This document shows positions 37,411 to 51,383 of a stretch of DNA of 64,000 bases, piece by piece. The notes under the pieces were generated by a model. It did not search any database. It was not told the DNA's origin and saw only the letters and a program-made list of their open reading frames with translations. The stretch comes from Candidatus Multivorans sp. (GTDB lineage Bacteria > Acidobacteriota > Thermoanaerobaculia > Multivoradales > Multivoraceae): assembly GCA_965224025.1 (NCBI GenBank), contig OZ245033.1, forward strand, positions 64,001 to 128,000, read 5' to 3'. Position 1 is the stretch's first letter. Each line of letters begins with the position of its first letter. The position numbers and the translations under genes were made by a program.

Positions 37411-37510
37411 TGGCGGAAGCGCATGGGAATCGAACCCACCCCCGGTGACGCATCACGCTCCGGACAACGGTTTTGAAGACCGCGGGAGGCACCAGCCCCC
37501 GAGCGCTTCC
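37411..37510 (-). tRNA. selC: tRNA-Sec (anticodon UCA)
   Basis: 8-bp acceptor stem GGAAGCGC/GCGCTTCC plus GCCA; 6-bp D-stem with 4-nt loop; anticodon loop CTTCAAA; long variable arm; T-loop TTCGATT. Confidence 0.93.
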
Positions 37511-37577: not shown

Positions 37578-38201
37578 ATGACGACGAGGAGCGCAGCGAT
37601 GAGGATCTCGACCGTCCACCTGCTGCCCCGCGTGCCGGCGCTCGGCCTGGCGCTCCTGCTCCTTGCCTGCGGCCCCGATGCGCCCGCCCAGGGAAACGCC
37701 GGCGCCGAGGAAGCAGCCCAGGCCGTCGAGCTGTCGGCGCCGGTCAGCGCCAACGGCGTGTCGATAGCGCTGCCGGCGGCGTGGAACCGGGTCGAACCCC
37801 GGTCGAGGATGCGCATGCTGGAGGCCGAGATTCCCGGTACGGGCGGCGTGGGCGAGATCTCGATGTACTACTTCGGGCCCGGCGGCGGCGGCGGCGCGGC
37901 GGCGAACGTCGAACGCTGGAAGAGCCAGGTCGTCCTCGAAGCCGGCGCTCCCGAGCCCATCACCCGGAGCCGGGAGAGCAATGGCGTCCGCCGCATCTGG
38001 ATCGAGCTCGAGGGCACGGTCGAGGCGAGCACGATCGGCAGCTTTCCGACCACGGACCAGCCGGACTTCGCGCTCTACGGCGCGGTCATCGAAGCGCCCG
38101 GCGGCCCCTGGTTCCTGCGCGCCGTCGGCCCAGCAGCGACGATGCGAGAGCAGCGCCAGGCGTTCCTGGCCATGCTCGACAGCGCCCGCCCGGAGGGCTA
38201 G
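37578..38201 (+). CDS. Putative lipoprotein
   Basis: Lipobox LLLLAC; ANVERWKSQ and GPWFLRAVGP segments. Start at 37578 or 37599. Confidence 0.75.
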   Translation: MTTRSAAMRISTVHLLPRVPALGLALLLLACGPDAPAQGNAGAEEAAQAVELSAPVSANGVSIALPAAWNRVEPRSRMRMLEAEIPGTGGVGEISMYYFGPGGGGGAAANVERWKSQVVLEAGAPEPITRSRESNGVRRIWIELEGTVEASTIGSFPTTDQPDFALYGAVIEAPGGPWFLRAVGPAATMREQRQAFLAMLDSARPEG

Positions 38202-38317
38202 CCAAGGAGGCTGAGCCGCCCACGCGGGGATCGGAGGGGCTTCTGGCGCCGGCGTGGCGAGTGGCGGGGAAGCGGGCTTTGCCGAGGCAAGGCCGCGAGG
38301 TTTCGAGCCGACCGGAA

Positions 38318-38393
<76 letters not shown>

Positions 38394-38431
38394 ACGGGTC
38401 GGCGGCGCGTGAGTGTAGCAGCAGGCTGACG

Positions 38432-39649
38432 CTACAGCGGCAGGACCTCGCACGGCTCTTCGGCCCCGGCCGGGCTGCTGAACTTCGGTACCCGCACGAG
38501 CCCGCAGCCGGCGCCGTACGCCACCAGGTCGTGGGAACCGAGGGGCGGCCGCGGGTCGGCCAGCACCATCCCGGACTCGACCCGGAGCCGGCAGGGAAGG
38601 AAGCGGTCACGCCACTTCGCGCCGGGCAGCTCCCCGGTGAGCCGTGCGCTGAGTGCTCCCCGCCAGTAACTGTCTTCGACTCCCGTCATGCGTCGCAACA
38701 GGGGACGCACCAGCAACCAGTACGTGACCATGGCCGAGGCGGGGTTGCCGGGCAAGCCGAACACCCATCCCCGGTCGTGGCGAGCGGCCACCAGGGGCTT
38801 CCCAGGCTGGATCGCAACCGCGTCGAACAGGATGCGGCAGCCGAGAGCGGTGTCGCCGAGAACCTGTTCCACGAAGTCGAACTCGCCCATGGAGACGCCG
38901 CCGGAGATCAGCAGCACGTCCGATTCCAGGCCGCGTTCGACCTTGGCCTGGAGTTCGGCGGGATCGTCCCGCGCAATACCGAGCGAGCGGGCCTCGATGC
39001 CCAATTGCGAGAGGGCGGCTCGCAGGAAGTCCCGGTGCGAGTCGCGAAGTTGACCGGGTCCCGGTTCCGCTTCGGCAGGCACGACCTCGTCTCCAGTCGA
39101 GAGCGTGGCGACCGTGGGCCGGCGGTACACCGGCGCCTCGCTAATGCCATGGGTCGCCAGCACGCCCGCTCCGCCGGGTGTCAGCAGTTCCCCCGCCGCC
39201 AGCAGCGGCCCGCCGGACGCGGTGACCTCGGCTTGCCGGCGGATGTGGCTGTCCGCCGGCACCGGCTCCGCGATGCGGACAGCGCCCGTTGGGGCGTCCG
39301 TGGCGTCGCCGGGCTCGAACTCCGCCTGTTCGATCGGGATCACCCGGTCCGCCCCGGCCGGCGCGGGCGCTCCGGTCATGATCCGCAGGGCGGCGCCGGG
39401 TCGAAGTTCCGCTCCCGGCGGATCGCCGGCGGCGACGGTTCCCTCGACCGGCAGGACGGTACCCGGCTCGACGTCGGCGCCGAGAGCGAAGCCGTCCATC
39501 GCCGAGACGTCGTGCGCGGGAACGTCGACGGTGGCGGTCAGGGCCTCTGCCAGAACGCGGCCGATCGCATCGGCCCGGGTTGCGCGTTCGACTTCGAGCG
39601 TTTCGGCTTCGGCGGCGATGGCGGCCCAGGCTTCCTCAGGCGAGAGCAT
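38432..39649 (-). CDS. moeA: Molybdopterin molybdenumtransferase MoeA
   Basis: Motifs SAMDGFA, RIMTGA, STGDE, SGGVSMGEFD, QPGKP and GLPGNPAS. Confidence 0.95.
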   Translation of the reverse strand: MLSPEEAWAAIAAEAETLEVERATRADAIGRVLAEALTATVDVPAHDVSAMDGFALGADVEPGTVLPVEGTVAAGDPPGAELRPGAALRIMTGAPAPAGADRVIPIEQAEFEPGDATDAPTGAVRIAEPVPADSHIRRQAEVTASGGPLLAAGELLTPGGAGVLATHGISEAPVYRRPTVATLSTGDEVVPAEAEPGPGQLRDSHRDFLRAALSQLGIEARSLGIARDDPAELQAKVERGLESDVLLISGGVSMGEFDFVEQVLGDTALGCRILFDAVAIQPGKPLVAARHDRGWVFGLPGNPASAMVTYWLLVRPLLRRMTGVEDSYWRGALSARLTGELPGAKWRDRFLPCRLRVESGMVLADPRPPLGSHDLVAYGAGCGLVRVPKFSSPAGAEEPCEVLPL

Positions 39650-39690
39650 GGCGTGTTGTTACCTGAGGCACCGGGCTGTCGTCAATCGCT

Positions 39691-40833
39691 TCACCCGATC
39701 TGCGTCAAGGCCGAGTACATCGGCAGGTACATCGAGATCACGATGGCGCCGATGACGATGCCGAGGATGCTGATCAGCGCGGGTTCGAGGAGCTTCATCA
39801 TGGAGTCGACGTCGTTGTCGACCTCTTCCTCGTAGAAGTCGGCGATGCGGGTGAGCATGGGGCTCAGGGTGCCGGTCTGTTCGCCGACGTAGACGATCTG
39901 GCAGAGCATGGCGGGGAAGATCTTCGTGCGGCGCAGCGACTGGTTGATCGGGCGGCCCTGTTCGACTTCGCGGCGCACCTTGCGAAGGGCGTCCGTGACG
40001 ACGACGTTGCCGGCGGCGTCGGCGGCAATGGACAGCGCGCTCAGGATGGGGATGCCCGAGGAGAGCAGGATGGACAGGGTGCGGCAGGTCCGGCCGGTGA
40101 CGATGCGCAGCATGAGTTTGCCGACGACGGGCAGCCGCAGCAGGAGACGGTCGGCCGATTGCCGGCCGCGCCGGGTACGGAGCAGCCGGTTCGCCGCGAA
40201 CCCGCCCGCCGCGGCGAGCGCGAACAGGACGAGCACGTAGGCGCCGATGAACTCGCTGACGCCGACCACGAGCCGGGTCAGGAGCGGCAGGTCGCCGCCG
40301 ATGTCGTCGAAGAGGTGCTGAAACACCGGGATCACCTTCCACAGGATGAGGAACACGACCGCGGCTGCGACGGTGAGGATGGCGGCCGGATAGGTCAGTG
40401 CGGAGCGCACCTGGTTGCGTAGCTTGGCGACCTTCTCGATGTGGGTCGCCAGCCGATCCATCACCGTGTTCAGAGCGCCGCTGGCCTCGCCCGATGCGAC
40501 CAGGTTGACGTAGAGATCGCCGAAGGCGCGTGGGCGCCGCTTCATCGCGCCGGCGAGGCCGGCGCCCGCTTCGACCTCCGAGCGGACTTCGAGCAGGATC
40601 GAGCGCAGGCCGGGGTGCTGGCCCTCGACGCTGAGAATCTCCAGGCTCTGGAGCAGAGGCAGGCCGGCGTCGAGCAGCACCGCGAACTGGCGGCTGAAGA
40701 CGGCGAGTGTCTTGGGGCCGACTCGGCGGCCCGGCCGCCACCAGGCTGGGCGGCGGTCGTGCCGGGGTTCGCCCTCGTCGGCCTTCGGGTCGGGTCCGGG
40801 GGCGTCGTCGTCGTCGAGCCAGCGCGGGAGCAT
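39691..40833 (-). CDS. pilC: Type II secretion F / type IV pilus inner-membrane platform protein
   Basis: Motifs FSRQFAVLLDAGLPL, GEASGAL, ALTYP, GEQTGTL, LLEP and MYLPM. Confidence 0.88.
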   Translation of the reverse strand: MLPRWLDDDDAPGPDPKADEGEPRHDRRPAWWRPGRRVGPKTLAVFSRQFAVLLDAGLPLLQSLEILSVEGQHPGLRSILLEVRSEVEAGAGLAGAMKRRPRAFGDLYVNLVASGEASGALNTVMDRLATHIEKVAKLRNQVRSALTYPAAILTVAAAVVFLILWKVIPVFQHLFDDIGGDLPLLTRLVVGVSEFIGAYVLVLFALAAAGGFAANRLLRTRRGRQSADRLLLRLPVVGKLMLRIVTGRTCRTLSILLSSGIPILSALSIAADAAGNVVVTDALRKVRREVEQGRPINQSLRRTKIFPAMLCQIVYVGEQTGTLSPMLTRIADFYEEEVDNDVDSMMKLLEPALISILGIVIGAIVISMYLPMYSALTQIG

Positions 40834-40937
40834 CGGTCAACCTCTCCGGGAGGTGGGACCGGGTCCGGGAAGCGCGCGCCTCCGCGCGCGCTCCCGCGCA
40901 CCGGCCCGCGCCGCTCCCGCCGCGCTGCCGGGTTCCT

Positions 40938-41654
40938 CTATTCGGGCTGGGTTTCGTCCGCTGGCGCCGGGGTGCTGGCCACGTCCATTTCGCCGAGCAG
41001 TACGAGCATGTGATTGTTGATCCGGGCGGCGCTGTCCGCGTCGCTGCCGGCGGGGTGCTCGTAAGCCAGGGTGACCAGGCGGTTCTCGATCGGATGCAGC
41101 ATGAACAGACGGATCTGCTGGCGGGTCGTGCCGTCGTCGGCCAGGAAGCGGCCGCGGGTGTACTGGGCGGGTCCGAGCGGACCGATGATCTGCCGGCCGC
41201 CGAGGGAATCGCCCTCCGGCAACCCCTCGTAGTACGGCGCGTGGCTCTTCGCCACGTCGTTGAGCTCGATGCCGAAATCGCTGGGCTCGCCGAGTTCCAG
41301 CCACAGGCTTCCTGCCGGTCCGGCGGGCGCCTGGGTGGTCTCGATGAGGTCGCACGTGAGTTCGAACGGCAACTCGCTCGGCTCGACGCGGGTGCAGCCG
41401 TCCGGCAGGAGGTTGAAGGCGAGCGCCTCCTCCTCCAGGACGATGCGCTCCAGACCGGTTTCCTCCGGTTCCGCCGCGCTCTGGCAGCCGATGGGAATGG
41501 TCCAGACACCTGTACAGACCAAGACGAAAAGCGCGGCGCGGAATGCGGTGCCGAGCCGTTCGCGGCCGAGCGGAGCAGGGGTCACGAGGCACCGGGCATC
41601 GCGGGGACAGTACCATGCGGCCAGCGGGCAACGACGGTTGGTCGGCGCAGGCAA
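40938..41654 (-). CDS. Hypothetical exported/lipoprotein
   Basis: Hydrophobic segment ending IPIGC followed by an acidic globular domain. Start uncertain. Confidence 0.6.
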   Translation of the reverse strand: MPAPTNRRCPLAAWYCPRDARCLVTPAPLGRERLGTAFRAALFVLVCTGVWTIPIGCQSAAEPEETGLERIVLEEEALAFNLLPDGCTRVEPSELPFELTCDLIETTQAPAGPAGSLWLELGEPSDFGIELNDVAKSHAPYYEGLPEGDSLGGRQIIGPLGPAQYTRGRFLADDGTTRQQIRLFMLHPIENRLVTLAYEHPAGSDADSAARINNHMLVLLGEMDVASTPAPADETQPE

Positions 41655-41739
41655 GACGGTAGGTCGGCGCAGGCAGCCCGTGGTGAACGGCGCCGGATGC
41701 CCGCGTCTTCAGAATCGGAATCGATGGGAGGAAGTCACG

Positions 41740-43068
41740 GTGGACAAACCGATCGCACGCGTTCTCAATCTGATCGACGACAGCGAGCAGCGCCTGTGGA
41801 ACCTGACGCCGGACGAGGCCCGGCAACGGCTGCCGCGAGGCCCCGAGGCGGTGCTCGGCATCGACGGGTCGTTCGCGCTCGCCGCCCGCCGCGGAGTGGA
41901 CGTCGTCATGGCCCGCAGCCTCGACCGGCCGATGCGCTACTTCCTGGCCAAGGAGTCCTCCGGGCCGATGCTGGTCATCGCCCAGCGCATCGACGAGATC
42001 AGGGACCGCCTCGAGGCGGAGGGCTACCTCGACCAGTTCCACCCCACCTACACGCGGATGGTCCCGGCGCATCACGCCACGACGCTGCGCCTGATCGGCT
42101 GCCCCGACCCGAACCCGATTCACGAGCGCTTCTTCGATCCGCCGCGAGGCACGTTGCCGCCCGACCTCGATCTGGTCGGCGAACGGTACGTCGAGGCGCT
42201 GATGTTCGAGCTCCGCCGCTGGCTGGCCGCGATGCCGGAGGACAGGGCGCGCGAGCCGATCGGGGTCTGCTTCTCCGGCGGCATCGACAGCGGCGCCGTG
42301 CTGGTGGCCTTGAGCCGCGCGTTGCTCGAGGCCAACTCAAGCGCCGTCCGGCTCAAGGCGTTCACGCTTCGGGTCGGCGACGGCGCCGGCGACGCCGCCC
42401 AGGCGCGCGAGTTCCTCCGGCGCATGGACCTCGAGATGCTGGGCGAGGAGGTCGCGGCCGGCGCCGAGGCGGTCGATCCGCTGCGGGCGGTCGAGGTGAT
42501 CGAGGACTACAAGGCGCTCGACGTCGAGTGCGCCGCGGTCGGTCTGGCGCTGCTGCGCGGCATCCGGGCGCGCTATCCCGACTGGCGGCTCCTGGTGGAC
42601 GGCGACGGCGGCGACGAGAACCTGAAGGACTACCCGCTGGAGGAGAACCACGAGCTCACGATCACCAGCGTGGTCGGCAACTCGATGCTCTACCAGGAGG
42701 GTTGGGGCATAGGCATGATCAAGCACTCCCAGACCTACTCGGGCGGCCTGGGGCGGGCCGCCGTCCGCACCCACGCGCCGGCCCGGCTGCTCGGCTTCGA
42801 GGGTTTCAGTCCGTTCACAAGGCCGGCGGTGATCGCCGTGGCCGAGGCGATCCCCTTCGACACGCTGGTCGGCGGCTCGCACGAGGCCCTGTACGAGCTC
42901 AAGGGCGAGGTCGTGCGGCGGGGCATGAAGCGGGTGCTCGGCATCGACTTCCCGGTCTTCCCCAAGCGCCGCTTCCAGGAGGGCGCGGCGTCGGAGGACG
43001 TGTTCGCCGCCGCCTTCGACCGTCCGCCCGAGCAGTACCGCCGCCACTTCCAGTCGCTCTACACCTAG
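41740..43068 (+). CDS. Asparagine-synthetase-like ATP-dependent amide ligase (no N-terminal Cys glutaminase)
   Basis: SD GGGAGG with GTG start; degenerate Ntn remnant IDGSFAL..MARSLDRPMRY; PP-loop FSGGIDS; DGDGGDE; SPF; PKRRFQEG. Confidence 0.85.
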   Translation: MDKPIARVLNLIDDSEQRLWNLTPDEARQRLPRGPEAVLGIDGSFALAARRGVDVVMARSLDRPMRYFLAKESSGPMLVIAQRIDEIRDRLEAEGYLDQFHPTYTRMVPAHHATTLRLIGCPDPNPIHERFFDPPRGTLPPDLDLVGERYVEALMFELRRWLAAMPEDRAREPIGVCFSGGIDSGAVLVALSRALLEANSSAVRLKAFTLRVGDGAGDAAQAREFLRRMDLEMLGEEVAAGAEAVDPLRAVEVIEDYKALDVECAAVGLALLRGIRARYPDWRLLVDGDGGDENLKDYPLEENHELTITSVVGNSMLYQEGWGIGMIKHSQTYSGGLGRAAVRTHAPARLLGFEGFSPFTRPAVIAVAEAIPFDTLVGGSHEALYELKGEVVRRGMKRVLGIDFPVFPKRRFQEGAASEDVFAAAFDRPPEQYRRHFQSLYT

Positions 43069-43115
43069 GTCAAGAACCTGCGCGGACGTTCCTTGCATCG
43101 CTCCGATCTTTGGAG

Positions 43116-43203
43116 ACCCGGGCGGCGCGATCCGCGCCACTCGCGAACCACTCCGTGCGCCCGTCATCGGACGCACGGAAGGGACGCGGGCATCTTGCCC
43201 GCA
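43116..43203. repeat. Family C repeat copy 3 followed by a family A REP-like hairpin
   Basis: Matches 28452-28515, then continues GGGACGCGGGCATCTTGCCCGCA. Confidence 0.85.
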
Positions 43204-43225
43204 TCCGGCGTGTAGCGCCGGCTTC

Positions 43226-44261
43226 GTGGGCTCTATCGTGGGGTTCGACCTGGTCGACAGTTCACGGGCCGCTGAGGTCCGGGCGCTTCGTCCGCCGCGG
43301 CCGGTGCTCGACCCCTGGCGGCCCCAGGGGGTGACGGTCGAGCTGGAGCGGGCGCCCGGCGGTGAGCTCCGTCCGTCGGCGACCGTGTTCCTGACCGGGG
43401 CCGAGTGTCCGTTCACTTGCGTCTTCTGCGACCTGTGGCGGTACACGGTCGACGGACCGACGCCGAAGGGCGCCCTGCCGGCGCAGTTGCGATCGGCCCT
43501 CAAGAGCCTGCCCGGTCTGCTCAGCGAGGCGGGACTCGACCGCTGCGACCGGCTCAAGCTCTACAACGCGAGCAACTTCTTCGAGCCGCGCGCGGTGCCG
43601 GAGGCGGACCTGGAGCCGATCGCGCGCCTCGCCGACGGGTTCGAACGGGTGATCGTCGAGTGCCACCCGCGGCTGGTGGACGAGCGGGTGCGCCGTTTCG
43701 CCGACCGGCTCCAGGGTCGCCTGGAGGTGGCGATGGGGCTGGAGACGGTGCACCCGCAAGCCCTGCCGCGGCTCGGCAAGCAGTTGACCCTGGACCAGTT
43801 CGACCGGGCCGCTTCGCGACTCGTGGCGGACGGCGTCGACCTGCGGGCGTTCGTGCTCGTGGGCGTGCCGTTCGTGCCGGCGGCGGAGCAGGCCCATTGG
43901 GCGGCAGCGAGCGTGCGACACGCGGCTGCGGCCGGCGCTCGGTCGGTGGCGCTGATTCCGGTGCGGGGCGGCAACGGCGAACTGGAGCGGCTTGAGCGGC
44001 TCGGAGAGTTTCAGCCCCCCGGACCTGGCCCTGGTTGAGGAGTCGTTGGCGTTGGGGCTTGAGGTCGCCGCTTCGCGGCGGCGCGTTGCCCGCGGGTCGG
44101 AAGACCCGCGTCACCTGGCGGCAGTCCAGGTCGACCCGTGGGACCTCGAACGCGTCGCTTCGGCGTGCGGCGCCTGCCGGGCTTCCCGCACTCAGGCGAT
44201 CCGGGAGATGAACGGCACCGCCGAACCGCGGCGGACGGCGTGCGATGACTGCGGCGGCTGA
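43226..44261 (+). CDS. Radical SAM enzyme (RaSEA/TIGR01210-like), split by a +1 frameshift at 44015-44020
   Basis: CPFTCVFC (CxxxCxxC), KLYNASNFF, VECHP and LEVAMGLET. The C-terminus PPDLALVEE...DPWDLE..CGAC...MN...CDDC continues in the +1 frame. Confidence 0.85.
44067..44118. repeat. Family A-derived insertion inside the radical SAM C-terminal frame
   Basis: CGCCGCTTCGCGGCGGCGCG..GCGGGTCGGAAGACCCGCG matches 15294-15346 and 9995-10020. Confidence 0.7.
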
Positions 44262-44332
44262 ACGCCGCGAAGAGGGTCGTTGCGCGGCCGCAACCGCCGC
44301 GCTGGTCAGAAGACCCGTCACATGGGGATGGT

Positions 44333-45922
44333 TTGGAGCGGCGTGAAGTAGTTGTTGCCGGCGGGGGCTTCGCCGGGTCGATTCTGGCGCGCGCGCTTCA
44401 CGCCGACGGCCGCGACGTGCTGCTGCTCGAGCGCGGACGCCATCCGCGGTTCGCGCTCGGCGAGTCGTCGACGCCGCTCGCCAACCTGGCCCTGGAGCGG
44501 CTGGCGGTGCGCTACGGGTTCGAGGACCTGTGGACGCTGGCCGCCCACGGCCGCTGGCGGCGCAAGCTGCCCGAGGTCGGCGGGGGATTGAAGCGGGGCT
44601 TCTGCTTCTACTCCCACCGTCCGGGTCAGGCCTTCGCGCCGGATGCCGCCGGCGGTCGCCGCCTGGTCGTGGCCGCGTCGCCGGACGACGATGCCGCCGA
44701 CAACCAGTGGCTGCGCGCCGACGTGGACCGTTTCCTGTTCGAGCGTGCGCGAGCCGAGGGCGTGGACTGCCGGGAGGAAACGGCGGTCGAGGGGGTTTCC
44801 GTTCCGGGTGGTCCGGACGCCGAGCCGGTTCGGCTCCAAGCCGGCGGCCGCGTCGTCGAGGCCGGCCTCCTGGTCGACGCGACCGGCGGCTCGCCACTCG
44901 CCGAACAGCTTGGCGCATGCTCGCTGCCGCCGCGGCTGCAGACGACCCTCGTGTACTCGCATTTCGACGGTATCGCTCCCTTCGACCGCGACGGCTGCTG
45001 GCCGGATTCGCCCTTTGGCGAGCGCTGGAGCGCCGCCCACCACCTGCTGGAGGAGGGCTGGATGTACCAGCTCCGCTTCAACGACGGTTCGGTGAGCGCG
45101 GGCGTCCTGCTTCCGGACGACCGGCCCGCGGCGGCCGCGGCCATCGAGAGGCTCGCCGGCAAGGGCGGCGCGGCTGCGTCCGAGGCCAGCGCCACCTTTG
45201 CCGGGCTGCTCGGTCGTTACCCGTCGCTGGCGAACCAGTTCGCCGGCCACCGGGCTCTGCGGCCGGTGGCTGCGCGCTCCGGCGTGGCCTACCGCCGCGA
45301 CCGGGCCGTGGGGCCGGGCTGGCTGCTTCTGCCCCACAGCTACGCCTTCGCCGACCCCATGTTCTCGACCGGCATCGCCTGGAGCCTGCTCGCCGTCGAG
45401 CGGATCGCCGGGCTGTGCCGGTACGGGCCGCCGGCGCCGGCGGCAGTCGAAACGTATGGCCGGCTACTCGCCGCGGAGGCGGACCACATCGACCGGCTGC
45501 TGGCCGCCGCCTACCGGCTGATGTGTGACTTCGAGAGCTTCACCGCCGTCGCCATGGCCTACTTTGCGGCAGCGAGCTTCGACGAACTGCGCCAGCGGCT
45601 GCTCGACCCCCCGGACGAAGGCTGGTGCTGGCAGGGCTTCCTGGGCGCGGACGAAGAGGTTCGCCGCGGGCTGTTCGAGGGACTGGACGAGCGCTCCGCT
45701 GGACCCGGGATGGCTCCGAAGCTGACGGACTGGATCGGGCCGGCGATCGAACCCCGCAATCTGATCGGCCTCGACGACCCGCGTCGGCGGAATGTCTACC
45801 CGGTCGACCTGGCGGACATCGAGCGCCGACACGACCAGATCGCGGCCCGTCTGGGAGTGGGGGCGGATGAGGTGCGGCGGCGGTGGCGCCGGCTGCGGAG
45901 CCCGGAGCGGATGCCGGGATAG
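44333..45922 (+). CDS. Flavin-dependent halogenase-like oxidoreductase
   Basis: GGGFAG Rossmann motif, HPRFALGES, LKRGF lysine, VDATG, GWMYQLRF (variant of WxWxIP) and FADPMFSTG. Confidence 0.82.
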   Translation: MERREVVVAGGGFAGSILARALHADGRDVLLLERGRHPRFALGESSTPLANLALERLAVRYGFEDLWTLAAHGRWRRKLPEVGGGLKRGFCFYSHRPGQAFAPDAAGGRRLVVAASPDDDAADNQWLRADVDRFLFERARAEGVDCREETAVEGVSVPGGPDAEPVRLQAGGRVVEAGLLVDATGGSPLAEQLGACSLPPRLQTTLVYSHFDGIAPFDRDGCWPDSPFGERWSAAHHLLEEGWMYQLRFNDGSVSAGVLLPDDRPAAAAAIERLAGKGGAAASEASATFAGLLGRYPSLANQFAGHRALRPVAARSGVAYRRDRAVGPGWLLLPHSYAFADPMFSTGIAWSLLAVERIAGLCRYGPPAPAAVETYGRLLAAEADHIDRLLAAAYRLMCDFESFTAVAMAYFAAASFDELRQRLLDPPDEGWCWQGFLGADEEVRRGLFEGLDERSAGPGMAPKLTDWIGPAIEPRNLIGLDDPRRRNVYPVDLADIERRHDQIAARLGVGADEVRRRWRRLRSPERMPG

Positions 45923-45958
45923 GGCGGTTGTGTTGTTGTGCGCAAGTCTCCGCCCTCC

Positions 45959-46855
45959 TCAGGGCGGCCCGATCAGCTCGTTCACCGAGCTCTCGAAGCC
46001 GGTCTCGGGCCGGTCCCGCCGCAGGCGGCGAGCGGCCAAGCCTTCGATGATGCGCTGAGGCTGGATCGAGCGCTGCCGCAATCGGTGGGCATCCAGCAGG
46101 TCGGCGGACAGGGCCAGCGCGGCGGCCCGGTCGGCCCGGTCGTCCAGGTCGCGGGCTGCCGCGGCCAGCGCGCCGGCAATTCGGGTCCAGCACCGGCGCG
46201 CGCGGATGTCCTCGAAGCCTCCTGCCTGGACCAGGCGGCCGGCGAGGGCCGAGACCCACAGGGCGAAGGCGTCGTCGCCGGGCCGCTGTCGCCAGAGGTC
46301 GACCAGATCGGATGCGAGGTCCTCGTCGACATCGTCGCTCACGGCCTGGCCGGCGCCCAGGTAGACGGCCAGCGACCGGCTGCGCAGGGTGGGCAGCAGC
46401 TCGTTGGCCGACGAGGCCAGCAGCAGGAAGTTCCTGGGCGACCTGTCGGCCGGCTCCTCAAGGGTCTTGAGCAGCACGTTCGCTCCGGCCGGATGCAACG
46501 TCTCCGCTTCGACGATGACGAACACCTGGCCCCGGGCCTCGAATGGCGACACCTGGGCCGTCCGCAGGAGGGTTCGGACCTTGTCGACGGCGATGACCGT
46601 CTCCCTCTTCTTCGGGTCGCGGCGCACGAACACGAAGTCGGGATGGAAGACCTTGTCGGCCTCGAGGTCGATCCGCCGGCAATGCCTGCAGGCGCCGCAG
46701 GGGCGCTCTTCCGGCGCCCGTTCGCACAGCAGTGCCCGGGCGATCTGGTTGGCAAGGGCAAGCCGCTCCTTCGCCTCGCCCCCGTGGAGGATCACCGATG
46801 GATACAGCCGGCCCGCGGCAGCGAGTTCGGGTAGTTGCTCCGGGGTCCGAGTCAT
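45959..46855 (-). CDS. holB: DNA polymerase III delta-prime subunit
   Basis: CGACRHC zinc site, HPDF, ANVLLKTLEEP and LLPTLRSR; ATGA overlap with tmk. Confidence 0.9.
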   Translation of the reverse strand: MTRTPEQLPELAAAGRLYPSVILHGGEAKERLALANQIARALLCERAPEERPCGACRHCRRIDLEADKVFHPDFVFVRRDPKKRETVIAVDKVRTLLRTAQVSPFEARGQVFVIVEAETLHPAGANVLLKTLEEPADRSPRNFLLLASSANELLPTLRSRSLAVYLGAGQAVSDDVDEDLASDLVDLWRQRPGDDAFALWVSALAGRLVQAGGFEDIRARRCWTRIAGALAAAARDLDDRADRAAALALSADLLDAHRLRQRSIQPQRIIEGLAARRLRRDRPETGFESSVNELIGPP

Positions 46856-47499
46856 GCGTCGGTCGTCCAGTTGCTCCGCAGCGGATCGAGGATGTCGCTC
46901 AGCGCTTCCTCGACAGTTTCCGCGACGGTTTCGATCGGCGCCGCCGCGTCGATGACGCGAAAGCGATCCGGCTCGCCGGCGATCCGTTCCTGGAACGCTG
47001 CATGGACCCGGCGGTAGAAGGCCAGGCTCTCCCGGTCGATGCGGTCGGCGGTGCGACCGCGCCGCCGCCGCCGCGCCTCCTCCGGCGGCAACTCGAAGAA
47101 GAGGGTGCGGTCTGGCGCGCGGCAGCCGGTGACGAGCCTGTCCGCCTCGGCGATCAACTCCGCCTGCACGCCCCGGCCACCGCCCTGGTACGCGTAAGTG
47201 GAATCCGTGAAGCGATCGCACAGGACGACCGCGCCCCCGGCCAGGGCCGGGTCGATCACTTCGATCAGGTGCTGGCGGCGGCTGGCGAACACGAGCATGA
47301 GCTCGACCACGCCGTCGACCTGAGCCGCCTCCCTTCTCAGGAACAACTCGCGCAAGAGGTCGGCGAAGGGCGTGCCACCGGGCTCCCGGGTGACCACGTG
47401 GGCGACTCCATGGCGTTCGAGGCGCGCCGCCACGCGTTCGAGCTGCGTCGACTTGCCGCTGCCGTCGAGGCCCTCGAAGGTGATGAACTGGCCGGGCAT
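46852..47499 (-). CDS. tmk: Thymidylate kinase
   Basis: Motifs FITFEGLDGSGKSTQ, TREPGG and CDRFTDSTYAYQG. Confidence 0.97.
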   Translation of the reverse strand: MPGQFITFEGLDGSGKSTQLERVAARLERHGVAHVVTREPGGTPFADLLRELFLRREAAQVDGVVELMLVFASRRQHLIEVIDPALAGGAVVLCDRFTDSTYAYQGGGRGVQAELIAEADRLVTGCRAPDRTLFFELPPEEARRRRRGRTADRIDRESLAFYRRVHAAFQERIAGEPDRFRVIDAAAPIETVAETVEEALSDILDPLRSNWTTDA

Positions 47500-47607
47500 C
47501 CGGTGGCCATGCTAGGAGTGTCCGCAGCGTTGTCGCTGCGCTGTCGCGCAGGGAACAGGCAGCGAGTAGCCAACGTTACAGCGGCGTCGTGGGTTCATAG
47601 AGTTGGC

Positions 47608-47763
47608 CGCGCTGGGCAGCGAGGCCGCGCAGGCACTGGTGTGTTGGCGCCCGACTAGGAGTTTGGCCCGGACCGTGATCGGCGCTCTGACGCTGGCGGC
47701 GCGGCTTGTGTCGCGACCCCGTATGCAAGATTGAGCTTTTCGCCGCGGTCTCTGCCCAGCGCG
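47608..47763 (+). ncRNA. Putative IS110 bridge/seek RNA
   Basis: Long closing stem 47608-47629/47744-47763, preceded by GTTACA-N17-TAGAGT. The loop contains CTAGGAGT and ATGCAAGA matching the element junctions. Confidence 0.55.
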
Positions 47764-47796
47764 ACGATTGGATTCTACATCTACGGGAGGCAGGGG

Positions 47797-49116
47797 ATGG
47801 CAAAGCGGAAGGCGGAGCGTCTGGAAGTCGTTCACCCGGATTGCGCCGGTGTGGACGTAGGCAAGCGCAAGCACTACGTGGCGGTGGCCCCGTCGCGTTT
47901 CGAGCGGCCGGTGCGCAATTTCTCGTCGTTCACGGAGGACCTCGAGGCGATGGCCTCGTGGCTTCAGGAGTGCGGCGTGCGTGAGGTGGCGCTGGAGTCG
48001 ACGGGGGTGTACTGGATTCCGGTGTTCGAGGTGCTGGACCGGGCGGGGTTCGAGGTGCATCTGGTGAATCCTCGGGCGACCAAGCAGGTGAGTGGCCGCA
48101 AGAGTGACGTTCTGGACTGCCAGTGGATCCGGCAGTTGATGAGCTACGGGCTCCTGCGCGGTGCGTTTCGCGCGCCGGACGAGTTGTGTCCGCTGCGTTC
48201 GTACACGCGGCAGCGCGCCCAGTTGGTCCGCGACCGCAGCCGCGCGGTGCAGCACATCCAGAAGGCTCTGGTGCAGATGAACGTGCAGTTGGACAACGTG
48301 CTGAGCGACATCATGGGCAAGACCGGCCAGTTGATCGTGCGCGCGATCGTCGCCGGCGAGCGCGACGGCGCGGCGCTGGCCCGTCACCGGGACGGTCGCT
48401 GCAAGGCTGGTCCGGCTGTGATCGCGGCGAGTTTGCAAGGCAACTGGCGAGACGAGCACCTGTTCGCTCTGGGCCAGGCGCTGGCCCGCTACGACATGCT
48501 GCAAGGCCAGATCGAGATGTGCGAGAAGCGCATCGACGCCGAGCTCGACGGCCTGGCCCAAGACGGCGTCGAGGACGCGCCGCCGCCCGGTTCGAAGGCG
48601 CGCGAGCGCGCCCTGCGGAAGCGGCTGCATCGCATGCTCGGCGTGGACCTGGTCGCCATTCCGACGGTCGGCGTCGAAACCGCGCTGACCTTCGCCGCTG
48701 AGATCGGCCCGGACCTGTCCCGGTTTCCCTCGCAGGGCAACTTCTGCTCGTGGCTGTGTCTGGCTCCACCGACCAACATCAGCGGCGACAAACGGCTGAA
48801 CGGCCCTCCCGTGAAGCAGACCAACCGGGTCGGCCAGACGCTGCGCCAAGCCGCCACCACAGCCCGCAACAGCAAGACCGCCATCGGAGCCTCTCACCGC
48901 CGGCGTCTCCAGCACATGGAGAAGGCGAAGGCCATCAAGGCCACCGCTCATCAACTCGGCCGACTGATCTACGCCATGCTGACCCACGGCGAAGAGTACG
49001 TCGAGCGCGACCTCGCCGAAATGGAGGCCGTCCGACGCGAACGACAAATCAGAAACCTGCAGCGTCAGGCCCGCCGCCTGAATCTGGCTCTCGTGCCGAC
49101 CGAACATGCCGCCTGA
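47797..49116 (+). CDS. IS110-family recombinase/transposase
   Basis: DEDD RuvC-like motifs GVDVG, LESTG and KSDVLDC; C-terminal domain AEIGPDLSRF..WLCLAP..ISGD; SD GGAGG. Confidence 0.95.
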   Translation: MAKRKAERLEVVHPDCAGVDVGKRKHYVAVAPSRFERPVRNFSSFTEDLEAMASWLQECGVREVALESTGVYWIPVFEVLDRAGFEVHLVNPRATKQVSGRKSDVLDCQWIRQLMSYGLLRGAFRAPDELCPLRSYTRQRAQLVRDRSRAVQHIQKALVQMNVQLDNVLSDIMGKTGQLIVRAIVAGERDGAALARHRDGRCKAGPAVIAASLQGNWRDEHLFALGQALARYDMLQGQIEMCEKRIDAELDGLAQDGVEDAPPPGSKARERALRKRLHRMLGVDLVAIPTVGVETALTFAAEIGPDLSRFPSQGNFCSWLCLAPPTNISGDKRLNGPPVKQTNRVGQTLRQAATTARNSKTAIGASHRRRLQHMEKAKAIKATAHQLGRLIYAMLTHGEEYVERDLAEMEAVRRERQIRNLQRQARRLNLALVPTEHAA

Positions 49117-49682: not shown

Positions 49683-51383
49683 ATGAACGTTCAGGCCTGG
49701 ACGTACCTGATCGTCACCGCGACCTTCGCGCTCTACATCGGCATCGCCTGGTGGAGCCGGGTCAGGTCGACCTCCGGTTTCTACGTCGCCGGCCGCGGCG
49801 TTCCGGCGGTCGCCAACGGCATGGCGACCGGCGCCGACTGGATGAGCGCGGCCTCCTTCATCTCGATGGCGGGCCTCGTCTCCTTCATGGGCTACACCGG
49901 CACCATCTACCTGATGGGCTGGACCGGCGGCTACGTCCTGCTGGCGCTGCTGCTCGCGCCCTATCTCCGCAAGTACGGCAAGTTCACGACCTCCGAGTTC
50001 GTCGGCGACCGCTACTACTCGGACGCCGCTCGGCTGGTCGCCGCGGGCTGCACGATCTTCGTCTCCTTCACCTACATCGCCGGCCAGATGCGGGGCGTCG
50101 GCGTCGTGTTCTCGCGCTTCCTGGAGGTCGAGATCCACTGGGGCGTGGTGATCGGCGTGGTCATCGTCTTCTTCTACGCCGTGCTCGGCGGCATGAAGGG
50201 AATCACCTACACCCAGGTCGCCCAGTACTGTGTCCTGATCGTCGCGTACCTGATTCCGGCAGCGGCGATCTCGTGGAAGATCACCGGCAACCCGATCCCG
50301 CAGTTCGGATTCGGGGGCGCGGTCCAGGAAGGCCAGGCGGCGGGCGTTTTCCTGCTCGAAACCCTGGACGCCCTGCACCGGGAACTGCGGCTGCCCGAGT
50401 ACACCGCGGCCTTCGTGCCGGGCAAGAAGAGCATGATCGACGTCACCGCGATCACGCTCGCCCTGATGGTCGGCACCGCCGGCCTGCCGCACGTGCTGGT
50501 CCGCTTCTACACCGTGCGCAGCGCGAGAGCCGCCCGCTGGAGCGCACTGTGGGCGCTGGTCTTCATCGGCCTCCTCTACACCACCGCGCCCGCGGTCGCC
50601 GCCTTCGCCCGCGTCAACCTGATCTCCACCCTGCACGGCGCGAACTACAGCGAGGTGCCGGAGTGGTTCAAGAGTTGGGAAACCACCGGCCTGATCGCCT
50701 TCGACGACAAGAACGGCGACGGCATGATCGACATGGCCGACGGGGCCAACGAGTTGACCGTCGACCAGGACATCATGGTCCTCGCCAACCCCGAGATCGC
50801 GGAACTTCCCGCCTGGGTCGTCGCCCTGGTCGCCGCCGGCGGCCTGGCGGCGGCGCTATCCACAGCCGCCGGTCTGCTGCTCGTGATCGCATCGGCGATC
50901 TCGCACGACGTCGGCAAATCGGTCCTGTGGAAGGACATGAGTTCGCGCAGGGAACTCCTGCTGGCGCGGACCACCGCCGCCGCCGCAGTGGTCGTGGCCG
51001 CCTACTTCGGCATCTCGCCGCCGGGCTTCGTTGCCCAGGTCGTCGCCTTCGCCTTCGGCCTCGCCGCGGCCAGCTTCTTCCCCATCCTCGTGCTCGGCAT
51101 CTTTACCCGCACCACGACGAAGGAGGGGGCGATCGCCGGCATGAGCACCGGCATCCTGTTCACCGGCTCGTACATCGTCTACTTCCGCCTGATCCGGCCC
51201 GAAGCGACGGCGGAGGACTGGCTGTTCGGCATCAGCCCCGAGGGCATCGGCGCGGTCGGGATGCTCATCAACTTCGCCCTGGCGATCACCGTGAGCCGCT
51301 TCACCAAGCCGCCGCCGGAAGAAGTGCAGCAGTTGGTCAGCGAGATCCGGTTGCCCCGCGAGCGCGCGGCGGAGTCGCCGTAA
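49683..51383 (+). CDS. Sodium:solute symporter (ActP-like cation/acetate symporter)
   Basis: Motifs FYVAGRGV, ADWMSAASF, GGMKGITYTQVAQY, GTAGLPH and GLAAALST. Confidence 0.92.
   Translation: MNVQAWTYLIVTATFALYIGIAWWSRVRSTSGFYVAGRGVPAVANGMATGADWMSAASFISMAGLVSFMGYTGTIYLMGWTGGYVLLALLLAPYLRKYGKFTTSEFVGDRYYSDAARLVAAGCTIFVSFTYIAGQMRGVGVVFSRFLEVEIHWGVVIGVVIVFFYAVLGGMKGITYTQVAQYCVLIVAYLIPAAAISWKITGNPIPQFGFGGAVQEGQAAGVFLLETLDALHRELRLPEYTAAFVPGKKSMIDVTAITLALMVGTAGLPHVLVRFYTVRSARAARWSALWALVFIGLLYTTAPAVAAFARVNLISTLHGANYSEVPEWFKSWETTGLIAFDDKNGDGMIDMADGANELTVDQDIMVLANPEIAELPAWVVALVAAGGLAAALSTAAGLLLVIASAISHDVGKSVLWKDMSSRRELLLARTTAAAAVVVAAYFGISPPGFVAQVVAFAFGLAAASFFPILVLGIFTRTTTKEGAIAGMSTGILFTGSYIVYFRLIRPEATAEDWLFGISPEGIGAVGMLINFALAITVSRFTKPPPEEVQQLVSEIRLPRERAAESP

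Follow-up and report, generated by a model that had tools for sequence, protein, structure and literature searches.

Several described enzyme systems share parts with the locus that we analysed. Beta-lactam synthetase of the clavulanate pathway and the carbapenam synthetase CarA have the two-domain fold of the asparagine synthetase AsnB, no working glutaminase and a carboxylate-adenylating PP-loop. In archaeosine synthesis in Euryarchaeota, the radical S-adenosylmethionine (SAM) enzyme RaSEA forms a complex with the lysine-adding ArcS and has preQ0-lysine as its substrate, according to the available sections of PMC11298593. The radical SAM enzyme YhcC/MnmL strips the carboxymethyl group of cmnm5s2U, according to the accessible part of 10.64898/2026.05.18.725915, and the halogenase-fold flavoprotein QhpG hydroxylates a peptide pre-crosslinked by a radical SAM enzyme, as reported in excerpts of PMC7876137. 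Here, we describe an operon from Candidatus Multivorans sp. (Acidobacteriota), in which genes for an AsnB-like ligase, a radical SAM enzyme and a halogenase-fold flavoenzyme follow one another. The operon lies in a 64,000-nucleotide stretch of contig OZ245033.1 (positions 64,001 to 128,000; assembly GCA_965224025.1), hereafter called the window, from a genome of about 70% G+C.

An earlier note on this DNA, made from the letters alone, had proposed the three co-oriented genes as an undescribed biosynthetic or modification system, bounded by a divergent lipoprotein gene and a convergent holB. The open reading frames (ORFs) confirm this layout on the forward strand (Table 1). Each of the enzymes comes from a known superfamily, while the combination and its partners are undescribed. 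In open-access papers and bioRxiv, subscription journals being outside this coverage, we found no paper on the trio or its parts as a system and no characterised pathway into which it fits, as the note had supposed. We are all but certain that the trio is a conserved functional module. More tentatively, and with somewhat less than even confidence, we read it as a self-contained and horizontally mobile operon that encodes an uncharacterised pathway for a small molecule.

The comparison with the described systems reveals shared features and clear differences. Compared with beta-lactam synthetase and CarA, the window ligase has the same fold, PP-loop and lack of a working glutaminase, but a shorter N-terminal domain with an invariant motif of its own, QFHPxYTRMVPAHH, and none of the recurrent neighbours of the trio is a beta-lactam pathway partner. 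In the case of ArcS and RaSEA, one enzyme attaches an amino acid and the other, a TIGR01210-like radical SAM enzyme, takes the carbon skeleton of that amino acid off again, the two genes occurring as a set (PMC11298593, in the sections available). The ligase and radical SAM genes of the operon likewise occupy the same 27 of 301 genomes. Unlike in the archaeal system, the partner is AsnB-like rather than a TGT/PUA protein, the set is bacterial, patchy and acidic, a halogenase-fold third gene is present, and the proposed substrate is a carboxylate instead of a nitrile on tRNA. The MnmL/YtqA/YhcC family (TIGR01212) also performs radical SAM C-N cleavage, removing a glycine-derived group (10.64898/2026.05.18.725915, accessible part), but it binds tRNA and has no ligase partner, unlike the window enzyme.

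The flavoenzyme shares GxGxxG, a lysine and FxDPxFSxG with the tetracycline 7-halogenase CtcP and the phloroglucinol halogenase PltM. It differs from both in having WMYQLR where they have WxWxIP, and its C-terminal 180 residues stayed unaligned in the searches. QhpD and QhpG of cysteine tryptophylquinone biogenesis combine a radical SAM enzyme with a halogenase-fold flavoprotein as the trio does (excerpts of PMC7876137), but their system includes a SPASM-type radical SAM enzyme, a precursor protein and a peptidase/exporter of its own, none of which is present at the trio. Features of lasso peptide cyclases were also absent: neither a conserved small ORF or precursor nor a B protein (RRE and peptidase) was found in 81 clustered loci and the low-GC loci. 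The ammosamide pathway, with its halogenase Amm3 and putative amidotransferase Amm20, was considered and rejected, as it needs a scaffold peptide and PEARL enzymes, judging from the part of its description available, and these have no counterpart here.

Conservation of the operon

A pattern scan, with each species represented by one genome, turned up at least 566 stretches that code for a ligase relative, of which we analysed the 80 best. The titles of their records mention Thermoanaerobaculia, Candidatus Multivorans, Vicinamibacterales, other Acidobacteriota and many Gemmatimonadota, as well as one metagenome-assembled genome each labelled Lysobacterales, Deltaproteobacteria and Abditibacteriaceae. 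Searching these loci with the three proteins (tblastn) recovered the order ligase, radical SAM enzyme, flavoenzyme in 71 of the 80, with gaps of tens of bases. Because this order recurs so often, the arrangement is more than chance. Six of the nine incomplete loci hit a contig edge (L040, L041, L051, L055, L065, L080), and the true exceptions are L039 without the radical SAM gene, L072 without the flavoenzyme gene and L076 with the ligase gene alone.

The genes also co-occurred among 301 genomes of the source phylum, a sample whose counts for the trio include the unpublished genome G024. The ligase was present in 27 genomes and the radical SAM enzyme in the identical 27, adjoining the ligase in each; the flavoenzyme was found in 24, all within the 27 and adjacent, being absent in G119, G246 and G011 (180-510 contigs). 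The other 274 genomes held none of the three at the thresholds used. The earlier note had named a lack of co-occurrence in other genomes as the result that would speak against a common system; instead, homologues of the three genes clearly travel together, and across phyla. Presence is thus patchy (27/301) even though the ligase is strongly conserved, which suggests a mobile accessory unit under strong constraint.

A further search of metagenome contigs, made with an alignment (A5) of remote members of the family, yielded 80 loci with ligases 44-66% identical to that of the window and a G+C content of 34-72%. The radical SAM gene lies directly downstream of the ligase gene in 57 of these loci, 15 more end too soon to judge, and the flavoenzyme is present in 30. 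At least eight loci contain the ligase-radical SAM pair with at least 4 kb of downstream sequence and no flavoenzyme (L082, L112, L122, L124, L125, L156, L159, L161). These loci showed that the ligase and the radical SAM enzyme are the core, an obligate pair, and that the flavoenzyme is a frequent but dispensable accessory. The earlier note had missed that the flavoenzyme is dispensable in several lineages.

Loci with only the ligase had mixed contexts without a shared theme, including sulfatases, GFO/IDH/MocA proteins and, in L132 and L151, an adenylation/carrier/aminotransferase protein. This last gene is a divergent fusion of an adenylation domain, a carrier protein and a class I-II aminotransferase of about 1150 aa (L132:1968-5396 and L151:4208-7687, both on the minus strand), and is followed by GFO/IDH/MocA, esterase and sulfatase genes.

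Table 1. Positions of the operon genes, the flanking genes and the probable assembly errors in the window, with examples from other loci of a membrane-protein gene that recurs near the operon
Feature	Coordinates	Strand	Basis
AsnB/beta-lactam-synthetase-like PP-loop ligase without glutaminase Cys, 442 aa	41740..43068	+	ORF, GTG start
Radical SAM enzyme, ~344 aa, split over two frames as assembled	43226..44261 (43226-44038 + 43992-44261)	+	ORFs
Flavin-dependent-halogenase-fold enzyme (CtcP/PltM-like), 529 aa, TTG start	44333..45922	+	ORF, Pfam
Probable assembly errors (extra C in 44015-44020; G vs contig T at 44021, 44028)	44015..44028	+	read contigs
Divergent putative lipoprotein, 238 aa	40938..41654	-	ORF; upstream of ligase
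Convergent holB	45959-46861	-	
tmk	46852-47499	-	
RnfD-like membrane protein	L141:11843-12700	-	
RnfD-like membrane protein	L160:7205-7945	+	
RnfD-like membrane protein	L020:17109-17888	-	

The radical SAM enzyme and its reading frame

The radical SAM enzyme carries the motif CPFTCVFC (CxxxCxxC), which is invariant in 36/36 family sequences. In the family alignment (A3), the invariant cysteines are C60/C64/C67 and C300/C303/C325/C328, and the four C-terminal ones suggest a putative zinc ribbon or second metal site. The earlier note had seen the N-terminal motif and the two C-terminal CxxC pairs, all of which are there, but it overlooked that the pairs lie in another frame. As assembled, the frame starting at 43226 runs into a stop at 44036-44038, and the C-terminus with both pairs is read at 43992-44261. 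The split results from a +1 shift: positions 44015-44020 are six consecutive C, and five would preserve the frame. In the five-C version, the gene encodes EFQPPDLSLVEES in one frame, as in the homologues P0122 and P0136, where EF[KE]PPDL..VEES is uninterrupted. The downstream frame is open and conserved up to the last Cys pair of the family.

We checked the shift against contigs, not raw reads, of two public runs (X1 and X2) from one sample with two related strains. A one-base deletion at 44015 accounts for all contig depth in both runs (107.5/107.5 and 86.7/86.7), and at 44021 and 44028 the same contigs have T instead of the window's G. Unitigs that match the window exactly (depth about 42) end at 43969 and restart at 44030, and the sole contig bridging this gap is the five-C version. 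Because every read contig over 44015 is without the extra base, the +1 shift is most likely an assembly consensus error, and the gene and the operon are most likely intact in the source genome.

The three differences within 14 bases (44015-44028; one extra C, two G-for-T) resemble long-read consensus error, and further apparent frameshifts in the source assembly may likewise be artefacts. In the co-resident strain seen in X1 and X2, 63 bases at 44063-44127, within the C-terminal linker of the radical SAM enzyme, are swapped for 24 others. This linker corresponds to the shorter one of P0122, which indicates a variable length. Three long database proteins that look like ligase-radical SAM fusions (P0012, 708 aa; P0370, 761 aa; P0423, 572 aa) were rejected as such, as their frame drift marks them as read-throughs of error-rich assemblies.

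Among curated families, TIGR01210 (RaSEA) was the best match for 36/36 members (best E 9.6e-24), all far below its cut-off: the window fragment scored 39.9 bits and P0122 41.8 bits against a cut-off of 212.15. TIGR01212 (MnmL) was also matched, very weakly, by 23/36 members (best E 3.3e-7), with 15.5 bits for the window enzyme against a cut-off of 180. For structural comparison, a model was built on the orthologue P0122, which is 93% identical (predicted local distance difference test, pLDDT, 94). A structure search independent of Foldseek ranked biotin synthase BioB first (Z 17.3), followed by queuine lyase (16.6) and HydE (16.3), with Elp3 (13.6), MiaB (12.5) and TYW1 (10.9) lower down.

The ligase and the flavoenzyme

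The GTG start of the ligase agrees with the N-termini of 19 aligned homologues. As noted earlier, the protein has SGGIDS in its PP-loop and GDGGDE, and lacks an N-terminal Cys: it begins with M-D-K-P, and the glutaminase Cys after the start is absent in 20/20 aligned sequences. Both SGGxDS and DGDGGDEN are invariant in the alignment, and in the family profile SGGIDS and DGDGGDE align with human ASNS and Escherichia coli AsnB. Of the profile searches that the earlier note had recommended, Asn_synthase (36 bits) and Trp_halogenase (54 bits) gave the expected matches to the ligase and the flavoenzyme, but TIGR01210 fell far short for the radical SAM enzyme, as described above. The ligase also did not reach the curated cut-off of the AsnB equivalog TIGR01536 (32.4 bits against 267.1).

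The AlphaFold model of the ligase (pLDDT 93) was matched over the full two domains by beta-lactam synthetase as the top Foldseek fold (1mbz, E 2.3e-13, TMq 0.60). Human ASNS, CarA (1q19, E 1.6e-11), AsnB and TsnB9 were further matches, and the sequence identity to beta-lactam synthetase and CarA is only 11-18%. A single-sequence phmmer search of the PDB found no relative. The match of the family profile to ASNS and AsnB is confined to the PP-loop half, and that to 1jgt covers positions 152-198 only, again the PP-loop (E 9.9e-5). Since the shortened N-terminal domain is conserved as strongly as the catalytic domain and bears the invariant motif given above, this domain may bind the substrate or a partner, as the alignment suggests.

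The window ligase shares 65-70% identity with relatives labelled Acidobacteriota and Gemmatimonadaceae. The family is compact and highly conserved: more than 8000 database proteins match, and only 681 representatives (50% clustering), many of them fragments, were found at E<=0.001 among 1.84 billion proteins. Its Atlas clusters include ones with Planctomycetota, Myxococcota or Pseudomonadota as the commonest phylum.

The flavoenzyme matches Pfam Trp_halogenase with 54 bits (cut-off 21). All the motifs listed in the earlier note were seen, namely GGGFAG (GxGxxG), Lys87 in GGLKRGF, FADPMFSTG for FxDPxxSxG, and WMYQLR at the site of the halogenase WxWxIP. The best PDB matches were CtcP (7xgb, 8.3e-33) and PltM (6bzt, 1.5e-29), and Lys87, invariant in 25/25 family sequences, aligns with a lysine in both (GQKSNF in CtcP, GIKLGF in PltM). 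In halogenases, the lysine near the flavin is catalytic. The family retains GxGxxG, Lys87 and FxxPxFSTG, while the second Trp of WxWxIP is replaced by Tyr in 25/25 sequences, the Pro is present in part of the family, and GW[ML]YxLxF is invariant in all 25. The enzyme also scored 56 bits on the QhpG model. The median isoelectric point (pI) of the ligase, radical SAM and flavoenzyme families is 5.5-6.1, all acidic.

Recurrent neighbour genes

ORF clustering of 81 loci revealed no further universal neighbour. Nevertheless, the neighbourhood analysis recommended in the earlier note identified genes that recur beside the operon in lineages other than that of the window: FG-GAP/UnbV_ASPIC genes, their tetratricopeptide-repeat (TPR) form, and SusC/SusD genes. 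Of 160 loci, 47 encode proteins in which Pfam identifies FG-GAP_3 repeats and a UnbV_ASPIC domain. In 21 Gemmatimonadota loci, such a gene is divergent, at most 600 bp upstream of the ligase, and often a second one is convergent right after the flavoenzyme. Eight metagenome loci have one or two co-oriented copies upstream of the ligase, at a distance of 16-151 bp in L112, L115, L125, L137, L139, L153 and L161 and of 874 bp in L160. In L122, the gene comes after the radical SAM gene, at the usual place of the flavoenzyme.

The orthogroups of these partners are common to loci of 34-43% and 60-68% GC. They comprise a small type A (L160, L141, L020, L033; 48-80% identity), a small type B (L112, L161, L125, L122; 55-69%), a TPR-bearing large type (L112, L045, L053; 41-47%) and a second large type (L161, L020, L033, L063; 38-71%). 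A type A orthologue (at least 54% identity) is present in 9 of the 27 trio-positive genomes, within about 5 kb of the trio in eight of them, as opposed to 6 of the 274 trio-negative ones. UnbV_ASPIC proteins occur in 27/27 trio genomes and in 166 of the 301 overall, a count that includes the unpublished genomes G024, G049 and G152. The only solved relative of the partners is human cartilage acidic protein 1 (CRTAC1). The domain is also present in UnbV, a secreted and unexplained product of enediyne clusters.

Next to the type A gene, 16 loci encode a polytopic membrane protein of about 250-286 aa that bears a weak likeness to RnfD/NqrB; we take it to be a possible counterpart of the enediyne protein UnbU. 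Genes for a SusC-like TonB receptor and SusD precede the divergent partner in 15-18 Gemmatimonadota loci. DAHP synthase, next to the operon in two loci only, and YdjC and MFS genes, in six to eight related loci, are local neighbours. Altogether, the link between the trio and its partners is frequent and recurs in varied arrangements, and neither side needs the other.

Discussion

The substrate of the trio is probably a small molecule. The ligase fold is nearest to beta-lactam synthetase, CarA and AsnB, the flavoenzyme to the free-substrate halogenases CtcP and PltM, and the radical SAM model to BioB, queuine lyase and HydE; in addition, the proteins are acidic, and no small ORF, RRE or peptidase accompanies them. 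The earlier note had allowed for a metabolite, cofactor, lipid or RNA as the product. Of these, RNA has become less likely, given the acidic families and a radical SAM model nearer to BioB and queuine lyase than to Elp3 and MiaB.

In line with the earlier note, we speculate that the ligase, without its glutaminase Cys, would adenylate the carboxylate of a small, probably aromatic, metabolite and couple an amine to it, an amino acid being the simplest choice. Next, the radical SAM enzyme would abstract a hydrogen beside that nitrogen and remove or rearrange the attached carbon skeleton, leaving a carboxamide or a ring, and the flavoenzyme could halogenate or hydroxylate an electron-rich ring. 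We arrived at this couple-then-remove scheme because the glutaminase of the ligase is dead and its constant partner resembles RaSEA and MnmL/YhcC, the two radical SAM enzymes known to take an amino-acid-derived group off nitrogen, in both cases on RNA. As a specific chemistry of adding an amino acid and then dealkylating, drawn by analogy, it is nonetheless doubtful. The product probably has its role beyond the cytoplasm, where it might, for instance, serve beta-propeller proteins as ligand or cofactor, as suggested by the recurrence of exported beta-propellers, the RnfD-like protein and SusC/SusD genes.

Several observations weigh against this picture. Every chemical step given to the trio is inferred, and the RaSEA and MnmL models are matched with scores far short of their cut-offs (39.9 vs 212 bits; 15.5 vs 180). 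The acidic pI and the fold ranking are weak evidence, and Foldseek returned generic matches for the radical SAM model, with the tRNA enzyme Elp3 first. The Tyr-for-Trp exchange in the flavoenzyme would be compatible with either halogenase or monooxygenase activity. Eight of the 80 metagenome loci have no radical SAM gene despite at least 1.7 kb of downstream sequence (L085, L086, L087, L090, L113, L120, L132, L151), and the co-occurrence counts exceed the number of separate events, since related genomes cannot be taken as independent cases. The read contigs that support an intact radical SAM gene come from a single sample holding two related strains. As for the partners, no FG-GAP/UnbV_ASPIC gene adjoins the trio in the window or in its close relatives L002-L014. 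The source genome has 15 UnbV_ASPIC matches elsewhere, but matches the small partner types at only 30-35%, with one TPR-type match at 30-39%, and the RnfD-like partner was not found in it. Moreover, the partner link is not obligatory, because six trio-negative genomes carry type A.

A more far-reaching version of the small-molecule pathway is a long shot. The ligase-radical SAM pair might be a glutamine-independent machine for forming amides or rings, applying the ArcS-RaSEA logic to a carboxylate. Together with the flavoenzyme, it might build an exported redox-active or metal-binding aromatic compound that serves CRTAC1-like FG-GAP/UnbV_ASPIC proteins, with the RnfD-like protein and SusC/SusD uptake closing the cycle, a logic like that of PQQ or a siderophore.

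Salvage or catabolism is an unlikely alternative, in which a compound imported via SusC/SusD and surface beta-propellers would be activated at its carboxylate, cleaved by radical chemistry at a C-N or C-C bond and hydroxylated on its ring. SusC-like TonB receptor, SusD, YdjC-like and MFS genes do flank the operon in Gemmatimonadota loci, but no transporter genes stand beside the trio in the window or in the Acidobacteriota loci L002-L014. AsnB-type ligases are known from biosynthesis, and the conservation of the ligase is unusually high for a peripheral catabolic enzyme. More in favour of salvage are the good structural match to queuine lyase, itself a salvage radical SAM enzyme (Z 16.6), and the ability of halogenase-fold flavoenzymes to hydroxylate, as in QhpG (excerpts of PMC7876137).

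It is quite unlikely that the trio modifies a protein or peptide, acting in the maturation of the exported FG-GAP/ASPIC proteins or of a ribosomal product whose gene lies at another site, after the models of QhpD and QhpG with their protein-derived quinone cofactor or of the lasso cyclases with their isopeptide bond. Lasso cyclases are AsnB-like, and specific exported-protein orthogroups recur beside the operon, but these partners are absent near the trio in the source genome and not obligatory. Likewise, QhpG combines the halogenase fold with a radical SAM-crosslinked peptide substrate (PMC7876137, in excerpts) and its model is matched by the flavoenzyme, but the best flavoenzyme matches use free small molecules. 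Furthermore, no conserved small ORF, RRE, leader peptidase or SPASM domain was found in 160 loci. The earlier note was also right that no precursor peptide, RRE, peptidase, nonribosomal peptide synthetase or polyketide synthase is adjacent, as the trio-bearing loci contain none.

RNA modification by a bacterial analogue of ArcS-RaSEA or MnmL, with the ligase adding an amino acid to a carboxylated tRNA or rRNA base and the radical SAM enzyme trimming it, we consider improbable. The only curated families matched by the radical SAM enzyme are those of the tRNA enzymes RaSEA and MnmL, Elp3 was the top Foldseek match, and a macromolecular substrate would go well with how strongly the ligase is conserved. 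However, the operon is patchy (27 of 301 genomes), unlike core translation functions, and all three proteins are acidic. The Pfam search detected no PUA, THUMP, TRAM or other RNA-binding domain, and no RNA family match was found near the operon. To our knowledge, a halogenase-fold partner with exported and uptake neighbours has no parallel in RNA modification. It is highly improbable that the frameshift is real and that the source genome carries only the decaying remains of the operon, with a dead pathway: the assembled window does have the +1 shift and the stop at 44036-44038, and the own-genome match ends at query residue 265, but neither of the two runs has a contig with six C, the clustered differences look like consensus error, and the downstream frame is open and conserved.

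A three-enzyme unit found in the genomes of at least 566 species from several phyla, with strictly co-occurring genes and no known product, points to unmapped chemistry in abundant soil and marine groups (Acidobacteriota, Gemmatimonadota). Should the ligase-radical SAM pair transfer nitrogen via an amino-acid adduct, the archaeosine trick would have been put to use a second time, independently, and amides would be made by a new route. That exported CRTAC1-like beta-propellers recurrently accompany the operon provides a first handle on a large orphan family, and the operon is small enough for direct heterologous expression.

Genomic surroundings of the operon

The divergent gene upstream of the ligase encodes a putative lipoprotein to which no Pfam family matched. 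In L002-L008, within the genus, it immediately precedes the ligase gene on the other strand (53-62% identity), and it has the same place in the more distant Acidobacteriota loci L010, L012 and L014 (29-37%). Its relatives in the Atlas fall into unnamed clusters only, and PsbP, named in 15% of one cluster, is only a lead. The lipoprotein is a lineage-specific conserved neighbour, for which we claim no part in the pathway. In the window, it fills the upstream position held by FG-GAP/ASPIC genes in Gemmatimonadota.

Riboswitches and other RNA elements were searched for near the operon in seven loci at gathering scores, with tRNA-like matches only, and nothing beyond tRNA-like matches appeared at window positions 38000-48000 at E<=0.1. 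A scan of 41400-46200 for promoters and terminators found none. On the minus strand upstream of the operon lie a tRNA-Sec gene (anticodon tca, 37411-37510) and a tRNA-Ala gene (ggc, 38318-38393); L010 likewise has a tRNA-Sec gene (L010:202-297), about 10 kb upstream of its ligase. Just past tmk, an IS110-family transposase gene (DEDD_Tnp_IS110 and Transposase_20) is located at 47731-49116 on the plus strand, and is followed by a sodium:solute symporter gene at 49683-51383.

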